DNA of 64,000 bases from the NCBI RefSeq assembly GCF_004353825.1, contig NZ_SMNA01000010.1:124001-188000 (forward strand), written 5' to 3'. Shown here piece by piece: positions 11 through 61,299 of the stretch (its first letter is position 1; each line of letters starts with the position of its first letter). The position numbers and the translations under genes are program-made. The stretch comes from Occultella glacieicola. Its GTDB lineage: Bacteria > Actinomycetota > Actinomycetes > Actinomycetales > Beutenbergiaceae. Under the pieces are notes generated by a model. The model was not told where the DNA came from. It ran no database searches and was given only the letters and a program-made list of their open reading frames with translations.

Positions 11-694
11 ATGTCCTTCCTCGCGCGCCTCAAGGAGATGTTCGCCCGACCGGAGCCGGCTCCGGGACCGGGGGCGCGGCGCCCCAGCCACGCCCCGCTG
101 CCGGCCGACGCCGGCCAGGAGGACCGCCTGCGGGAGAAGCTGGCGGGGGACCCGAACGACGTCGACGCGTTCAACGAACTTGCCGAACTCGTCCGGCGCC
201 GGGCCGCCGAGGTCGAGCAGCCGGACCCGCTCACCGCCGAGACCGGCCCGATCCGGGCTCAGGCCGCGGACACCGCGCACTGGGCGCTCGCCGAGGAGCT
301 GGCCGGCCGACCCACGGCCTGGTACCCGCTCGTCGAGCTCGCTCGACTGTCCCTCCTGGATGACAAGGAGGGTGCGATGCGCCGCCTCGGGGCCGCCTGC
401 GAGCGGGACCCGAGCGGGCGGGCGCTCGTCGCGGGCGTCCGGATGCTCCGGGACGCGCACATGCCCGCGGACGCGCTCGGGCTGGGTGTGGGGCACTGGT
501 CGCCCGCCGATCAGGACGCGGAGGCCGGCCGTCAGGTGATCCGGGCCGCGCTCGACGCCGGCCGCCCGACAGACGCCCGACGGCACCTGAGTGCCCTCGC
601 CGAATACGGGGCGGACCGCCCCGGCACCGCCGGAGTGGTCGCCGAGCTGGAACCCTTCGTCGCCGCCGCGGAGGCGAGCACGCAGACCTCCTGA
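11..694 (+). CDS. Conserved hypothetical all-helical (TPR-like) protein
   Basis: 227-aa ORF with high-GC codon usage and helical repeat-like pattern (DPNDVDAFNELAELV; AWYPLVELARL). Confidence 0.7.
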   Translation: MSFLARLKEMFARPEPAPGPGARRPSHAPLPADAGQEDRLREKLAGDPNDVDAFNELAELVRRRAAEVEQPDPLTAETGPIRAQAADTAHWALAEELAGRPTAWYPLVELARLSLLDDKEGAMRRLGAACERDPSGRALVAGVRMLRDAHMPADALGLGVGHWSPADQDAEAGRQVIRAALDAGRPTDARRHLSALAEYGADRPGTAGVVAELEPFVAAAEASTQTS

Positions 695-42944: not shown

Positions 42945-43178
42945 ATGATGTCTGAGAGCGCTCCGCCGGAGAAGACGTTCTACTACAATCTGGAAACCGG
43001 AGCCGTCGAAGAGGGTCTGGTCAGCGACTGGAACTCACGGATGGGGCCCTACGCCACGCGCGAGGAAGCCGCCAAGGCGTTGGAGACGGCGCGGCTCCGG
43101 AACGCGAAGTGGGAGGACGAGGACCGGGCCTGGCGCGACAGCGACGATCCCGGTGCCCGGGACGAGCAGGACGAGTAG
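42945..43178 (+). CDS. Small conserved actinobacterial protein (SPOR-like)
   Basis: FYYNLETGAVEEG...MGPYATREEAAKAL...RNAKWEDED; AAAGGA RBS. Confidence 0.82.
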   Translation: MMSESAPPEKTFYYNLETGAVEEGLVSDWNSRMGPYATREEAAKALETARLRNAKWEDEDRAWRDSDDPGARDEQDE

Positions 43179-43272
43179 CACAGCAGAACAGGACGAACGA
43201 GCAGGACCGGTCGAGCCGGCCGGTCCCCGAGATGGCCGCGCGCCTGCGTGGCCGCACGGCGGAAGAAGCGAG

Positions 43273-44091
43273 ATGCGGACGAGTTCACCCAGACGTCGGG
43301 GGACCCTGGTCGGCGCCGCCCTGGCGGGCGCTCTCGCATTGGCGATCACCGCCGTCGGGCCTGCCGCCGCCGACACCGACGACGACGATGTCGTCGTGAA
43401 GGTCAAGGCGCACACCACCAGGACCCCGCTGCTCGGCTGGACCATCGGCCTCGACCCTGGCCACAACGGCGGCAACGCCTCGCACGTGCTGGAGATCAAC
43501 GAACAGGTCCCGGACGGCCGCGGCGGCTGGAAGCAGTGCAACACCACCGGCACCACCGCGCTGAGCGGGTACGCCGAGCACGAGTTCAACTTCGACGTGG
43601 CGGTGCGCACCCGGGCGGCCCTCGAGGACCTCGGTGCGACCGTGGTGATGACCCGCGAGAGCGACGACGGCGTGGGCCCGTGCGTGGACGTGCGCGGCCG
43701 GTTCGCCGAGGACAACGACGTGGACCTGATGCTCTCGATCCACGCGGACGGCTCCGCCGATCCCGCGATCGCGGGCTTCTTCGCGATCGTCGCCGACCCG
43801 CCGCTGTCGGAGTCGCAGGGGCAGCCGAGCCTCGAGCTCGCCCAGACGATGATCACCGCGCTCAGCGACGGCGGCTTCACCCCGAGCACGATCTACGAGG
43901 AGGCGCTCTCCCAGCGGGCCGACCTCGCCACCCTGAACTTCGCCCGCCGGCCCGCCGTGATGCTGGAGCTGGGGGAGATGCGCAACCCGGCCGAGTCGGA
44001 CCTGATGAGCAGCGAGGCGGGCCGCCAGGCCTACGCGGACGCGCTCGTCGACGGCGTGCTCGACTGGGCCGGGCCGCACGACCCGCAGTAG
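43273..44091 (+). CDS. N-acetylmuramoyl-L-alanine amidase (Amidase_3), secreted
   Basis: Signal peptide, LDPGHNG, EHEFN, SIHADG, ELGEMRN. Confidence 0.92.
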   Translation: MRTSSPRRRGTLVGAALAGALALAITAVGPAAADTDDDDVVVKVKAHTTRTPLLGWTIGLDPGHNGGNASHVLEINEQVPDGRGGWKQCNTTGTTALSGYAEHEFNFDVAVRTRAALEDLGATVVMTRESDDGVGPCVDVRGRFAEDNDVDLMLSIHADGSADPAIAGFFAIVADPPLSESQGQPSLELAQTMITALSDGGFTPSTIYEEALSQRADLATLNFARRPAVMLELGEMRNPAESDLMSSEAGRQAYADALVDGVLDWAGPHDPQ

Positions 44092-44161
44092 GGAGGAGCG
44101 GGCGGCGCCGAGCCAGACGCCATTCGCGGCGCTCGTCCCGCCACTGCGCCTCCTGCAAGGC

Positions 44162-44175
44162 GCTTCCGCGGAAGC
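44162..44175. repeat. Dispersed palindrome GCTTCCGCGGAAGC (also 45767-45780, 47376-47389, 61973-61986)
   Basis: Four exact intergenic copies downstream of gene ends. Confidence 0.7.
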
Positions 44176-44311: not shown

Positions 44312-44477
44312 TTGACGCCACTCCGGTGCCGGTCTACCCTCGGTGCAGCGCGAGCGGGATCGCGCCGAGACTCGCCGGAAGGCTCGAAGCCACCCCGATG
44401 ACGTGGGTGAGTTGTCTTCAGACACCTACCGATGCTCGGCCCGTGCGAGTCCGGGCGACGAGCGAGGTGTTTCCGAC
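44312..44477 (+). promoter_or_regulatory. Promoter TTGACG-N17-TACCCT and structured ~130-nt 5' leader
   Basis: -35 at 44312-44317, -10 at 44335-44340; four hairpins plus a 7-bp long-range pairing; SD GAGGTG at 44464-44469. Confidence 0.7.
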
Positions 44478-45686
44478 ATGAAGATCCTTCCCGACTCCCC
44501 GAACCTCGACCACCTGCGCCGCCAGGCCAAGGACCTCCTGGCCGGCCTGCGCGACGGCGAACCGACGGCGTCGCTCGCCGACGCCCAGGCCGCGCTCGCG
44601 CAGCAGTACGGGTTCCGCACCTGGCCGGACCTCAAGGCGGAGGTCGAGCACCGGCGCGGCTCCGAGGAGGTCGCACCGTCCTCCCTGGCAGCGGCGCTCG
44701 CCGAGCGCTACGACCTCGGCACCGTGACGGCGCCGATGCGTTCGGTGCAACGCTCCGACGACCTCGGCCGCCGCTGGGCACTCGACACCGACCGCGGCCG
44801 CTGGTCGGTGAGCTCGGTGGAGAGCTGGTGGCCGATCGTCGATGCCGACCGCGACGTCGAGCTCCAGGAGGCTGCCGCGGCGGCCGGTGTGCAGCTCCCG
44901 CTCCCGATGCGCGGACCGGCGGGCGCCGTCGTCGAGGAGATCGACGGCGTGCCGTGGCGGGTCACCCGGTGGCGGCACTCCGGTGCGCCGCTCGGCGCAC
45001 CGGTGGCGGCACGGTTCACCTCCAAGGTCGGTGCCATCCTGGCGACGATCCACGGCCTCGGGTTCGAGGTCGACCGCATCAGCCCGTGGCACGCGGCGCG
45101 GTTCTCGGACGAGCCGTGGGCGCAGGTCGCGGTTCGGGTTCGCGCGGCCGGTGTGCCGTGGGCGGATGCGTTCAACGCGGCCACCCAAGAGCTCGAGCAC
45201 CTCGCGGATCTGGGCTCGGCGCCGGTCGACCCCTCGACGGCGGTCCTCACGCACAACTCGCTGGGCCCGGCGAAGGTGCGGCGTGAGCACGGCGGAGGTC
45301 TCGTCGTCGTCGGCTGGGAGCATGCGGGTGGTCAGCCTCCCGCATGGGAGCTTGCCGACGTGCTCGCGACCTGGACGATCGACCCGAGCGGGGCGGTCAA
45401 CGTCACCGGCGCGCGGGCGCTGGTCGAGGGGTACGCCGCCGTGGCCGACGGCGTCCCGCGCCTCGACGAGGCGGCGTTCCGCGGGTTCGCGATGAGCATG
45501 TGCAACTACGTGGCCGGCCAGGTGGACGCCGCGCTCGACGCCGATAGGGCGGCGACGACCACGCCGGGGCGCGGGGAGGTGGCCGAGCGCGACTTCACCG
45601 CGCGCAGCGTCACGCACCTCCTGACGCATCTGCCCCGCCGGAGCGCGTTCGCGCAGCTGCTCGAAGCGACCACGCTGGTGCGCTGA
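44478..45686 (+). CDS. Small helical N-terminal domain fused to APH-like phosphotransferase fold with degenerate active site
   Basis: LPDSPNLDHLRRQAKDLL...AQQYGFRTWPDLK; GAILATIH, LTHNSLGPAKV, VVVGWEHAG. Confidence 0.8.
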   Translation: MKILPDSPNLDHLRRQAKDLLAGLRDGEPTASLADAQAALAQQYGFRTWPDLKAEVEHRRGSEEVAPSSLAAALAERYDLGTVTAPMRSVQRSDDLGRRWALDTDRGRWSVSSVESWWPIVDADRDVELQEAAAAAGVQLPLPMRGPAGAVVEEIDGVPWRVTRWRHSGAPLGAPVAARFTSKVGAILATIHGLGFEVDRISPWHAARFSDEPWAQVAVRVRAAGVPWADAFNAATQELEHLADLGSAPVDPSTAVLTHNSLGPAKVRREHGGGLVVVGWEHAGGQPPAWELADVLATWTIDPSGAVNVTGARALVEGYAAVADGVPRLDEAAFRGFAMSMCNYVAGQVDAALDADRAATTTPGRGEVAERDFTARSVTHLLTHLPRRSAFAQLLEATTLVR

Positions 45687-45815
45687 ACCCCGCACCGGCG
45701 CACGGTCCGAGGCCGCGCTCGCGCCGGCGGGCCGCGCTTCGGAGGAAGCGCGGCCCGTCGCCGGACGCTTCCGCGGAAGCGGCTCCTGGACTACCGACCG
45801 GGTCGGGTGCTCCGG

Positions 45816-46793
45816 TCAGTCGCCGCCCGGGCGCTCGTAGTGCGCACTCACCGCCGCTGCCCGGCTGCGGAGAGACGCCCGCACCGACGCCGGGGCGAGC
45901 GCCTCGACGTCCGCGCCGAGCTGCCACAACGCCCACTCGGCGTGCCAGGCGTCCTGGTAGCTCACCTCGAGCCGGAGCCAGCCGCCCGGCTCAGGCTCCT
46001 CGGCGCGGACCGCCACCGCGGACTTCAGCAGGTCGTCACGCCGGGCCGGGTCCACCCGGACGAGCACGTTGATGTGAGCGCCGGACAGGAACTGCGCGCA
46101 CCGCTCCCGCCAGACCCGCTCCAGGTCCACGTCGGCCGGCCGTTCCGCGGGCTCGGGCAACTGCTCGGCGGCCACCATCCGGGACAGCCGGTAGGTGCGG
46201 TTCTCCCCGGACCTCATCGCCAGCAGGTAGGCCCGGTCGCGGACGGTCACCAGCCCGATGGGGTCAATCGTGCGCCAGGTCGCCTCCTGCCCGGCGGCGG
46301 CGTAGTGGATGCGGAGCTTGTGCCCGGTGAGCACGGCCCGCCGCACCTGCGCCATCGTGTCCCGGGAGACCTCCTCGGTGACCAGCGGGCGGGAGAGCAG
46401 GTCCGTCTCCGGTTCGACGAGGAAGCGCTGCGCCGCGTCGGTCATGGTGGTCCGGTGGCCCTCGGGAAGTGCGTCGGCCACCTTCCGCACGGCCGAGGCG
46501 AGGGCCGAGCCGAGACCGAAGACCTGGGCACCGCGCGCGGAGCCGGCGGCCAGCAGCGCCAGCGCCTCGTCGTGGTTCAGCCCGGTCAGTTCGGTGCGGA
46601 AACCCGGTAGCAGGGCGAACCCGCCCTGGCGGCCGCGTTCGGCGTAGACCGGTACCCCGGCCGCCGAGAGCGCCTCGATGTCCCGCAGCACCGTGCGGGT
46701 GGAGACCTCGAGTTCGCGCGCGAGCGTCTCCGCGTTCAGCCGGCCGCGCTGGCGCAGCAGCAGCACCAGGGAGACCAACCGGTCGGCGCGCAT
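45816..46793 (-). CDS. HTH + WYL domain transcriptional regulator (YafY-like)
   Basis: MRADRL, LARELEVSTRTVLRDIEAL, DPIGLV, AYL, RTYRLSR. Confidence 0.94.
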   Translation of the reverse strand: MRADRLVSLVLLLRQRGRLNAETLARELEVSTRTVLRDIEALSAAGVPVYAERGRQGGFALLPGFRTELTGLNHDEALALLAAGSARGAQVFGLGSALASAVRKVADALPEGHRTTMTDAAQRFLVEPETDLLSRPLVTEEVSRDTMAQVRRAVLTGHKLRIHYAAAGQEATWRTIDPIGLVTVRDRAYLLAMRSGENRTYRLSRMVAAEQLPEPAERPADVDLERVWRERCAQFLSGAHINVLVRVDPARRDDLLKSAVAVRAEEPEPGGWLRLEVSYQDAWHAEWALWQLGADVEALAPASVRASLRSRAAAVSAHYERPGGD

Positions 46794-46810
46794 TCTCCAA
46801 CGGTATCCGG

Positions 46811-46918: not shown

Positions 46919-47320
46919 ATGGTGTTGGAGCGAACGGCGGTCAACCCGTCGACGTGGTCGTTGGAGATCGGCTACAACCAGGGCGAGGTCGTCACCGGGC
47001 ACACTCGGACCCTGTACCTCGCCGGCCAGACGGCGATGAGCAGCGAGGGCCAGCCACTCCACGAGGGCGACATCGGGGCCCAGCTGGAGCTGAGCCTGGA
47101 CAACGTCGAGGCGACCCTCACCGAGGCGGGCATGACCTTCGCGAACCTCATCCGGCTCACGATCTACACCACGGACGTCGACGCCCTGCTCCCACACTTC
47201 GGCGTGCTCGGGGCACGGCTCGGCGCCGTCGGTGCCGCGCCCCCGATGACGGTGCTGGAGATCTCCCGGCTGGTGATCCCCGGCCAGCTGGTCGAACTCG
47301 AGGGCACCGCCGTGGCGTGA
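46919..47320 (+). CDS. RidA/YjgF family protein
   Basis: LYLAGQT, LDNVEATLTEAG, VELEGTA. Confidence 0.9.
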   Translation: MVLERTAVNPSTWSLEIGYNQGEVVTGHTRTLYLAGQTAMSSEGQPLHEGDIGAQLELSLDNVEATLTEAGMTFANLIRLTIYTTDVDALLPHFGVLGARLGAVGAAPPMTVLEISRLVIPGQLVELEGTAVA

Positions 47321-48527: not shown

Positions 48528-48644
48528 GAGCGGCGCCAACGCATGGAGGCATTCGGGCGTTCGTTCAAGACGGCGGACGAGTCGGACTGGCATGAGTGCC
48601 GGTCCTGGGACGGGACGCTCGACGACGGCCGAGCCAGTGACTGA
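48528..48644 (+). pseudogene. 5'-truncated antitoxin remnant
   Basis: ERRQRMEAFG...WDGTLDDG; overlaps toxin start; N-terminus absent. Confidence 0.55.
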
Positions 48645-48971
48645 CCGGGCACGTCGTCTGGGCGGAGCTCGATCCGGTGCGCGGCCGGGAGCACGCCGGG
48701 CGCCGACCGACGCTCGTCGTGGCCAGCGATCTGTACTTGGAGCAGGCGGACACGCTCGCGATCGTCCTTCCGGCGACGACGACCGATCGGGGACGGCCCA
48801 GCCATGTACGTCTACGCGGTCCGCGGCGCGGGCTGTCGACGCCGACCTTTGTCATGACGGAGCAACCGCGAACCGTCCCGGGATCGCGTCGTCGGCAACG
48901 TCGGGGCGGTGGACGCCGCGACGATGCGTGAGGTGGACGGCTGGGTGCGGGACTTCTTCGAGTTGCCCTGA
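48637..48971 (+). pseudogene. Frameshifted PemK/MazF toxin
   Basis: VVWAELDPVRGREHAGRRPTLVV...MTEQPRTV; frameshifts near 48640 and 48878; tail RDRVVGNVGAVD...WVRDFF in another frame. Confidence 0.8.
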
Positions 48972-59173: not shown

Positions 59174-60169
59174 GTGTACGACCAACCGTTCGTCGGCGAG
59201 CCCTCTACCGACCCGGCTCTGCTGAGGACCCTGGCGGCCGCGGGCCTGCCAGGAACCGGACGCTTCCTTCGCAAGGCCGGCTGGGTCAGCCGCGTGTGGG
59301 TCGGCGACGAACACGTCGTGCGACTGAACAACGACGAGCGGTTCCGCGACGCGTATCGCCACGAGGCAGGCGTTGTCGACCTGCTCGCCGGCAGCGAGGT
59401 TCCACACGCCCGGATCCTCGCCCACGGCGACGGCCCGGACGGGCCGTGGTACGTCTCCGAACGCCTGCCCGGCCGGACCCTGTACGACGCATGGCCGGCG
59501 GCGGACTCGCGCACGCGTCAGGCGATGATCGAGAGCCTCGGCTCTGCGTTGCGCGCCCTTCACCGCGTCCCCGTGCCGGCCGACCTGCTGCCGCCCTGGC
59601 TGACCGACGCCCTCTCCGGCAAGCCGTGGCCGGCGTTCCACCCACCCGTCGTGGGTGCCGCGGTCCAGCAGGTCGAGGCGGCCAGGCGACTGCCCGGTCA
59701 GGACGCGCGCCTGCTCGCGGACGTCGCGGACTGGATCCAGGAGCGGCTGGCGTTGTTCGTCGCCGACGAACCCGTCCTCGTCCACGGTGATCTCCATGGA
59801 TCCAACGTGATGGTCGACCAAGGGCGCGTCACCGGTCTGATCGACTTCGCGGAGGCGCTGGCTCAGCCGGCGGATGTCGAGCTCGACACGATCCTGCGCT
59901 GGTGCGCGAAGGCCCGGGAGTACCCACCCACCCCCGACGAACAGGGGCTCGACGAGACCACCCTCACAGACGTCCCCGGGTGGTTGCACGGCGCGTATCC
60001 GGAGCTGTTCGCGCGCGAGCACCTGCGCGAGCGGTTGAACTTCTATGACATGTACGGGGAGCTCGCGCTCTACGCACACCACCCCCAGCCCGACGTTCGG
60101 GAGGCGGCGAAGGACCGCATCGCTCGCCTGCTCGCCGGCCGCAACCATCTGGATGGACTCGTCTGGTAG
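59174..60169 (+). CDS. Aminoglycoside phosphotransferase (APH) family protein
   Basis: Intact LVHGDLHGSNV and LIDF. Confidence 0.88.
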   Translation: MYDQPFVGEPSTDPALLRTLAAAGLPGTGRFLRKAGWVSRVWVGDEHVVRLNNDERFRDAYRHEAGVVDLLAGSEVPHARILAHGDGPDGPWYVSERLPGRTLYDAWPAADSRTRQAMIESLGSALRALHRVPVPADLLPPWLTDALSGKPWPAFHPPVVGAAVQQVEAARRLPGQDARLLADVADWIQERLALFVADEPVLVHGDLHGSNVMVDQGRVTGLIDFAEALAQPADVELDTILRWCAKAREYPPTPDEQGLDETTLTDVPGWLHGAYPELFAREHLRERLNFYDMYGELALYAHHPQPDVREAAKDRIARLLAGRNHLDGLVW

Positions 60170-60306
60170 GCGCGGCCACACGGGATCTGACCTGCGCCCG
60201 AGTCCGGGCTCGCACTCCCGCGCACTCCCCGGTGGCCGACGTCCGCCGTTGCCGCCACAGTGGCATCCGTAGGGCAAGGACCCTCGAGGCGATGCGGAGG
60301 TGCGTG

Positions 60307-61299
60307 ATGGCGCGATCGATCTGGACCGGTGCGTTGGCGTTCGGGTTGGTGAACGTGCCCGTGGGCCTGTACTCGGCCACCGAGGACAAGACGATCCACT
60401 TCCGCCAGTTCGCGAAGGGCACCTCCTCACGGATCCGGTACAAGCGGGTCAACGAGGACACCGGCCGGGAGGTCGACTACGAGGACGTCGTCAAGGGCTA
60501 CGAGCTGGACAACGGGGAGTACGTGCTCCTCGACCCGGACGAGCTCGACGAGATCGCACCCGGCCGCTCGCGCACGATCGACATCACCGACTTCGTCGAC
60601 GCCGAGGACATCGACCCCATCCACTACCAGAAGACCTACTACCTGGCGCCGGCGAACGAGAGCGCCGAGCGCGCCTACCGGCTGCTCACCGCCGCCATGG
60701 AGAAGACCGACCGGATCGCCGTCGCGAACTTCGTGATGCGCTCCAAGCAGTACCTGGCCGCCGTGCGCCCGCACAACGGGGTCCTGACGCTGGAGACGAT
60801 GTTCTTCGCCGACGAGATCCGCGACCCCAAGTCCGAGCTGCCGCGGGTGCCGGCGGCGCGCAAGCCCGGCGACAAGGACCTGAAGATGGCGACGTCCCTG
60901 ATCGAGTCCATGACCTCGGAGTGGGATCCCGCGAACTACGTCGACACCTACCGCGAGAAGGTCCTCGACCTGGTGCAGGCGAAGGCCAAGGGCGAGGGCG
61001 TCGTCACCCCGAGCGACGCCGAGGAGGACGAGGGTGGTGGCGTCATCGATCTGATGGAGGCGCTGCGCAAGTCGGTCGAAGCATCCCGTCAGCACAAGGC
61101 CGGCAACCGCCATCAGGCCGGTGGGCTCGAACGCAAGACCAAGGAGTCGGGCGACGCACCGGACGTGGCGGCGAAGTCGAAGAAGGAGCTGTACGACCTG
61201 GCGAAGGACTACGACATCGACGGCCGCTCGCAGATGACCAAGGAGGAACTCGCTGACGCGATCACCCAGGCGGCCAAGACCCAGAAGAAGGCCTCATGA
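60307..61299 (+). CDS. ku: NHEJ protein Ku with C-terminal Rho_N-like extension
   Basis: MARSIWTGALAFGLVNVPV, VKGYE, YYLAP, VIDLMEALRKS; tail KKELYDLAKDYDIDGRSQMTKEEL. Confidence 0.95.
   Translation: MARSIWTGALAFGLVNVPVGLYSATEDKTIHFRQFAKGTSSRIRYKRVNEDTGREVDYEDVVKGYELDNGEYVLLDPDELDEIAPGRSRTIDITDFVDAEDIDPIHYQKTYYLAPANESAERAYRLLTAAMEKTDRIAVANFVMRSKQYLAAVRPHNGVLTLETMFFADEIRDPKSELPRVPAARKPGDKDLKMATSLIESMTSEWDPANYVDTYREKVLDLVQAKAKGEGVVTPSDAEEDEGGGVIDLMEALRKSVEASRQHKAGNRHQAGGLERKTKESGDAPDVAAKSKKELYDLAKDYDIDGRSQMTKEELADAITQAAKTQKKAS

Follow-up and report, generated by a model that had tools for sequence, protein, structure and literature searches.

The gene at positions 44478-45686 (+ strand) of the window, the whole 64,000-nt stretch of DNA that was analysed, comes from a soil bacterium and encodes a predicted 402-aa pseudokinase behind a structured leader RNA; judged from sequence, the protein may be a sensor or sponge of an undescribed type that regulates itself. 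All positions are given in the numbering of the window and not of the contig. The best explanation, held with somewhat less than even confidence, is a self-regulating cassette that would consist of a promoter, a double-pseudoknot leader, a small N-terminal module (N-module) and a swappable binding domain. The N-module would bind its own leader and control translation, and the dead kinase would sense or sequester a ligand. An RNA-protein sensor pair had been suggested in the original prediction; comparative analysis supports a probable pseudokinase, a module shared with ankyrin proteins and a leader that tracks the module, and sensing by the pair stays a proposed step.

The kinase part of the protein (residues ~64-402; 44667-45686, +) was assigned to the APH/type II homoserine kinase fold by Pfam, AlphaFold2 and Foldseek. 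Pfam places it in the APH family (PF01636) with 43.1 bits against a cut-off of 23.2 over residues 98-323, and the AlphaFold2 model, built from a 120-sequence alignment, predicts with confidence (pLDDT 94.9, pTM 0.92) a two-lobed kinase fold of the APH/CAK type. Its top Foldseek match is 2ppq (E 2.5e-13, TM 0.53/0.65), and the top structural neighbours are the type II homoserine kinase 2ppq, the N-acetylhexosamine kinase NahK, APH(9)-Ia, and AmiN. The peptide-modifying relatives TvaE (8jsu) and LxmK are also among the matches. With 2ppq and other APH proteins the pseudokinase shares the fold and the Pfam family, but it lacks the catalytic residues and carries the additional N-module. With the NCBIfam model for type II homoserine kinase, TIGR00938 (thrB_alt), it scores 20.4 bits against a cut-off of 255.9 and is not a member. 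PADLOC gave no match for the protein, and a search of a plasmid collection gave none either.

From its residues, the product is very probably a pseudokinase. At the HxDxxxxN position the catalytic loop reads H259-N-S-L-G-P-A-K266 (45252-45275, +), with S261 in place of Asp and K266 in place of Asn, and at the D-W-E position the metal-binding motif reads G279-W-E (45312-45320, +), with G279 in place of Asp; both readings agree with those of the original prediction. In the alignment with relatives, S112 (44811-44813, +) stands at the position of the ATP-binding β3 Lys, and the Gly position of the nucleotide loop reads D94. The original prediction had named an APH at 59174 as an intact counterpart, which is correct as it has HGDLHGSN and DFA, but with 24% identity over 124 aa it is a distant comparator. 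Two closer, intact relatives without the N-module are encoded elsewhere in the genome (G000:C17:67886-68830 on the - strand and G000:C16:168910-169656 on the + strand); both keep HxDxxxxN and DWD/DWE and would be better activity controls.

The dead kinase fold of the original prediction, which was to be checked by structure prediction and in homologues, is borne out by a family-wide loss of residues in addition to the confident model. A search yielded 345 homologues at E ≤ 0.001, and residues were counted in the best 120 of these, query included. The catalytic Asp is absent from all 120 (T 44, A 27, S 22, N 17, V 6, G 4, D 0), the metal-binding Asp position reads G in 99, D in 11, A in 8, C in 1, and S in 1, and the β3 Lys position never reads K and reads R in 113/120. 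More divergent proteins were compared in a set consisting of the query and the 150 best representatives at 50% identity, from which 106 with >80% cover of the kinase region were kept and 45 dropped. K, D, N, and D are retained together in 71/78 representatives without the N-module, compared with 0/28 representatives with it, the 28 being related, non-independent sequences and not 28 events. The seven exceptions without the module start at the kinase domain and are N-terminally truncated, and one of them differs solely by a K to R exchange. These alignments show the predicted catalytic loss to be family-wide and to track the fusion with the N-module. In a rapid, incompletely searched tree (80 rows, among them 45 of the 71 intact ones), 34/35 dead rows fall into one 37-row branch (SH-aLRT 96). 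A single origin of the loss is unsupported because the same branch also contains three intact kinases without the module.

The conservation of GWEHAGGQ in the close clade, together with the predominance of Arg at the Lys position, could indicate an active enzyme with a non-canonical chemistry that depends on clade-conserved residues such as R112, H282, and E281. Two proteins would fit this reading, P0124, which has the N-module and retains D, N, and D with Ser instead of Lys, and L073, which also retains D, N, and D. The replacement residues vary between the deeper module-bearing lineages, with many different residues at the dead positions, which suggests relaxed constraint and not a new active site and makes the reading highly improbable.

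The losses are selective. In a position-wise comparison, G94, A110, K112, D261, N266, and D279 have been lost, and the structural residues H192 and E291 as well as W204, W214, W228, W280, W299, F334, and N343 have been retained. By analogy with the anatomy of the CAK fold in the available text of PMC2860764, and not by model coordinates, the retained aromatic and polar residues probably sit in substrate-side elements. Both the coupling of catalytic loss to the module and the retention of structural and probable substrate-side residues argue for the cassette. According to the same text, pseudokinases of the CAK/APH fold among bacterial spore kinases have lost the catalytic Asp, the Asn, and the Asp of DxE and have kept the structural His and Asp/Glu, and binding of a pseudosubstrate has been proposed for them (PMC2860764). 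The residue pattern found here matches theirs, but spore kinases are spore-coat proteins of Firmicutes for which the available text describes no such N-module or leader (PMC2860764), and the family described here is closest to type II homoserine kinase.

Selectivity also bears on a reading in which the kinase is a passenger: a mobile unit of promoter, leader, and module would pick up genes for expression, and these would subsequently decay. The patchy distribution of the gene, with full-length orthologues in 3/40 relatives, and truncated or remnant copies (L090, L263) are consistent with such decay. The loss of specifically the catalytic positions, in a family of 345 homologues that keeps its core residues and has a confidently modelled fold, the best 120 being mostly full-length, speaks against it, and this reading is considered most improbable.

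The N-module comprises residues 1-60 (44478-44657, +) and was delimited by a marginal Pfam match and by conserved residues. The match to Glyoxalase_8 (PF20066) covers residues 7-95 and passes narrowly with 24.4 bits against a cut-off of 23.7; some relatives of the module score below this cut-off, and the name does not imply a glyoxalase domain here. AlphaFold2 predicts three helices for the ~60 aa, in which L4, P5, P8, R14, A17, K18, R25, L33, A36, Q37, A41, Y44, G45, F46, W49, L52, and K53 are conserved. Its net charge is about 0 and lies within -1 to +1 in 45/67 sequences. Searches with the module alone gave no clear solved fold and no known RNA-binding fold, either in Foldseek (no match at E ≤ 0.001) or in VIA (best Z 4.4), a negative result that does not make the fold a new one. 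ANTAR had no Pfam match at E ≤ 1 and is absent from the fold matches listed in these searches. An RNA-level constraint inside the coding region of the module was considered and rejected (synonymous conservation 0.68 compared with 0.61-0.64).

The original prediction had likened the N-terminal ~55 aa to a module fused to varied domains, ankyrin repeats among them. The module is real, slightly longer, and found in such fusions: a search in 401 actinobacterial genomes returned matches in 15, on ankyrin proteins, a beta-lactamase-like protein, and others, and the Atlas adds combinations with Clp_N, DUF5655/DUF5990, and DUF523 as well as stand-alone forms of ~66-82 aa. In the beta-lactamase-like protein (L212:145-1650, - strand), the SxxK motif lacks both Ser and Lys, so that this single example is a possible second pseudoenzyme. 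The genome of the window encodes another Glyoxalase_8 protein (L001:1498-2499 on G000:C11), which combines Glyoxalase_8 with Glyoxalase_7 and AHSA1. The region upstream of it matches neither RNA model nor the structural descriptor (see below); the Pfam family may therefore span branches with different leaders.

The gene is preceded by a leader of ~130 nt (44348-44477, +) that is conserved upstream of the homologues and is almost certainly a real structured RNA with a compensatory double pseudoknot. Including the window, it is present at 78/79 loci and absent at L057. Its promoter is predicted to be of the housekeeping type and was read from the sequence as a -35 box TTGACG (44312-44317, +) and a -10 box TACCCT (44335-44340, +) separated by a 17-nt spacer. 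TTGAY-16..19-T[AC]NNNT occurs at this place in 42/78 homologous leaders and TANNNT in 70/78, both counted without a shuffle control, and the leader starts ~7 nt after the TANNNT box. A scan with the sigma-70 consensus gave no match. Among the promoters of L003-L080, 25 of the 42 with both boxes have a spacer of 19 nt, some with inverted repeats inside. A MerR-type reading of this spacer was set aside; the window locus has 17 nt.

The leader consists of an invariant 5' core and a more variable 3' part. The core (44348-44396, +), defined from the family alignment, contains the helix P1 (44348-52/44361-65), the pseudoknot PK1 between the loop GGG (44356-58) and CCC (44394-96), the 5' strand of PK2, the linker CGGAA, and the hairpin P2 (44381-84/44388-91). 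The PK2 strand GACTCGC (44369-75, +) pairs with GCGAGTC (44445-51) in the loop of the 3' hairpin P4. This hairpin (44433-44472, +; 44439-43/44452-56) closes PK2 through its loop and is extended by 44433-38 and by an anti-Shine-Dalgarno (anti-SD) strand over the SD. Constrained folding and pairing in the family place a variable hairpin P3 (44403-44429, +; arms 44403-09/44423-29) between the two parts. A candidate leader peptide, an ATG-started frame from 44399 in the variable region, was rejected; by eye, the alignment contains no conserved uORF.

The structure is supported by an alignment of 61 rows from the 79 loci, comprising the long forms alone. P1, PK1, PK2, P2, and P4 together make 24 pairs with 98.7% of cells paired and two-sided changes in 11 pairs. 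None of 500 shuffles reaches any of these measures, and slid controls pair at 20-52%. P4 is 100% and PK2 99.8% paired, each with two-sided changes in three pairs. The leader RNA supposed in the original prediction thus exists, with covariation well above the shuffle controls. PK2 has its complete 7-of-7 partner in 67/68 long leaders, and its common strand occurs in 57/68 long leaders and in 0/10 short leaders without P4. Because these 10 short leaders lack the 3' hairpin and the common PK2 strand but retain the 5' core, the core can be regarded as constant and the region 3' of it as a variable platform. Folding energy of the whole leader (z -1.5) is by itself weak evidence in a GC-rich background. 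Rfam contains no match to the window leader at E ≤ 5 and none to the leaders of five other loci at E ≤ 0.5. In the literature covered, most subscription journals and the supplements of PMC5737381 and PMC11109978 being outside its scope, there is no description of the leader RNA or the N-module, and the main text of PMC11109978 mentions neither ankyrin nor glyoxalase.

The leader accompanies the N-module and not the kinase domain, as supported by sequence searches in metagenomes and genomes. In metagenomes, a short-pattern scan was evaluated at 80 of at least 120 loci, which by eye comprised 35 true leaders and 45 chance matches. The N-module lies downstream of 34 of the 35, and in three of these cases a weakly GyrI-like domain takes the place of the kinase behind it. 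A first structural descriptor was too loose, with hits in 27/150 and 13/79 controls, and was tightened after that result; the tight version recovers 58/79 APH-type and 6/11 other leaders, with 0/400 genome controls and 0/237 shuffles. Leaders of other N-module genes have the same topology (P1, PK1, PK2, P2) with a different sequence, and PK2 and P2 show compensatory change across subfamilies (covariation score 0.436 compared with 0.189). Searches with model R2 recovered the training loci alone and are circular. A joint RNA model gave 85 matches in 38/39 genomes and provides a non-circular test, yet in genomes chosen for an APH-type gene. Fifty of its matches were judged not to be original loci, one of which is L014 after all and two of which are duplicates; in 48 of these 50 the N-module follows the leader, irrespective of the C-terminal domain. 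The two misses precede a GNAT gene (L253) and a gene remnant of few codons (L263), and at L111 a leader lies before a rearranged frame without the module. The reverse case, an N-module without a detected leader, occurs at L057 and L216. Ankyrin proteins account for 30 of the 34 scanned N-module partners of further leaders. Up to nine leader copies occur in one genome, and the genome of the window has one.

The leader might itself be the sensor, as a small-molecule riboswitch or as a stress- or ribosome-responsive switch, with an N-module that dimerises or docks on a common partner. A compact core that holds two pseudoknots and has unpaired bases that do not vary, the variable platform around the SD, an N-module that is not basic, and the L253 leader in front of a GNAT gene without the module would suit this reading. 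A riboswitch is expected before unrelated genes of one pathway, whereas here nearly all further leaders precede the module, and a sensing leader is regarded as rather unlikely.

For the self-regulating cassette, the covariation of the leader core and the coupling of leader and module in both searches are supporting evidence. Leader and module are adjacent, and linkage alone could hold them together; this, the exceptions named above (L111, L253, L263, L057, and L216), and a module of about zero net charge that matches no known RNA-binding fold count against it. In the proposed mechanism, the N-module would recognise P1/PK1/P2, the invariant 5' core of the mRNA that encodes it, and, once bound, would bias the 3' part of the leader between an SD-closed and an SD-open form, most simply repressing its own translation. 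Binding of promoter DNA by the module appears less likely than binding of RNA, given that the conserved element begins immediately downstream of the predicted -10 box and has pseudoknot- and G-U-preserving variation.

Control of access to the SD is a possible function of the 3' part. The SD-like GAGGTG (44464-44469, +), read from the sequence, is paired in the minimum-energy fold of the window leader (-31.3 kcal/mol) and freed once P3 forms (-26.6), and the 3' arm of P3 overlaps the anti-SD strand 44420-27. On this folding model, P3 is proposed to represent the SD-free state, and the leader strand 5' of P4 may pair either over the SD or into P3. Across the family, P3 is paired in 84.7% of cells (2/500 shuffles as high). 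The anti-SD helix reaches 89% pairing, its changes (C/U and A/G) are for the most part one-sided, and its covariation is not significant (52/500 shuffles as high). Pairing of the SD in 62/78 leaders compared with 121/200 genome controls, with a median opening cost of 5.85 compared with 4.4 kcal/mol, is a slight excess. In the 48 further leaders, the strand before P4 pairs more strongly with its own SD region (-18.4) than with those of others (-14.4) or after shuffling (-12.5), but its own region ranks first in just 3/48. SD pairing barely above the controls, the non-significant anti-SD covariation, and the whole-leader folding score weigh against this part of the mechanism.

In the remaining steps of the proposed cassette, the dead kinase would retain its substrate-side pocket, in which a small molecule, either a metabolite or a natural-product toxin, would be bound but left unmodified. 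The RNA would be released upon binding, so that more protein would be made and the ligand soaked up. The other fused domains are likewise binding folds (ankyrin, weakly GyrI-like, Clp_N, and beta-lactamase-like without SxxK), which is in favour of this explanation, but the partners are mostly ankyrin repeats, which is not. Ankyrin repeats usually bind proteins rather than small molecules. In a related reading, leader binding by the module would stand, but the partner of the dead kinase would be a protein or peptide, or the domain would simply provide a scaffold or stability, so that the signal would be a macromolecule or the turnover of the protein itself. The dominance of ankyrin and Clp_N partners, the stand-alone modules, and the peptide-modifying TvaE and LxmK among the matches are compatible with this. 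Against it, the structures that match best are kinases of small molecules (2ppq, NahK, APH(9), AmiN), and the ATP site has been lost while the probable substrate-side residues stay; the reading is judged distinctly unlikely. In its most general and rather doubtful form, the cassette would be an RNA-level one-component sensor platform. Leader and cognate 60-residue RNA-binding module would capture domains, and captured enzymes (APH-fold kinase, beta-lactamase-like) would lose catalysis and turn into ligand-gated switches and into sponges for metabolites or natural-product toxins, with each protein controlling its own translation.

Autogenous translational control in which a protein binds a structured pseudoknot leader is known from ribosomal protein S15 and T4 gp32, and ANTAR is a small helical RNA-binding domain found on varied sensor domains. 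The system described here differs from these in that there is no Rfam or ANTAR Pfam match, every gene is preceded by a leader of its own, and the module is combined with exchangeable domains. Two further precedents support the cassette. According to the available text on ClpC2 of mycobacteria, this protein keeps its own promoter repressed until it binds cyclomarin A and then accumulates as a sponge (PMC10030653). By analogy, ClpC2 resembles the proposed cassette in its small N-terminal nucleic-acid-binding domain, its non-catalytic decoy domain, self-repression, and ligand sequestration, but it binds promoter DNA and controls transcription (PMC10030653), whereas the conserved element here is an RNA pseudoknot over the SD. 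Clp_N fusions of the N-module exist, but the module itself was not matched to ClpC2. In the capreomycin phosphotransferase Cph, the pocket protects by sequestration without catalysis, as the available text describes; Cph is an active enzyme, unlike the pseudokinase, and is likened to it by analogy (PMC10730852).

Autogenous ligand-gated control is a known kind of regulation; a swappable platform built on dead enzymes would, if confirmed, be new in kind. Should the N-module prove to read the leader under gating by the dead kinase, RNA and protein would make up a new recognition pair, bacterial pseudokinases would acquire a new role, and the uncharacterised Glyoxalase_8-like head of many actinobacterial ankyrin proteins would gain a function. 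The leader would then report ligand binding, so that a reporter fusion would make ligands screenable, and the swappable sensor domain would be useful for biosensors. Whatever the mechanism, both the uncatalogued RNA and the almost perfect association of catalytic loss with fusion to the module call for an explanation.

The pseudokinase family is mostly actinobacterial. Among named homologues, those of Occultella and Beutenbergia are closest (72-87% identity), followed by Micromonosporaceae, Pseudonocardiaceae, and a few Chloroflexota-type bins. Neighbour clustering of the 79 loci gave clusters limited to close relatives and no conserved neighbour or operon context, which favours the self-contained cassette. 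The picture, drawn from sequence, is that of a patchy single-gene cassette with its own predicted promoter. Upstream of the gene lies an N-acetylmuramoyl-L-alanine amidase (Amidase_3; 43153-44091, +). Downstream, Pfam identifies a WYL/WCX (PafC-like) regulator (45816-46796, -) divergent from a RidA/L-PSP family gene (46919-47320, +); the regulator gene converges on the pseudokinase gene, and this arrangement adjoins it in just 3/79 loci. On either side of the cassette (44158-44175 and 45722-45781) lies a short, REP-like palindrome that recurs many times in the genome and may be a terminator hairpin, one without a U-tract. Farther away, we take a short ORF at 48592-48931 (+) to be like a PemK/MazF-type protein, apparently truncated or frameshifted, and the ORF adjoining the intact APH (60232-61299, +) presumably encodes a Ku-like non-homologous end-joining protein.
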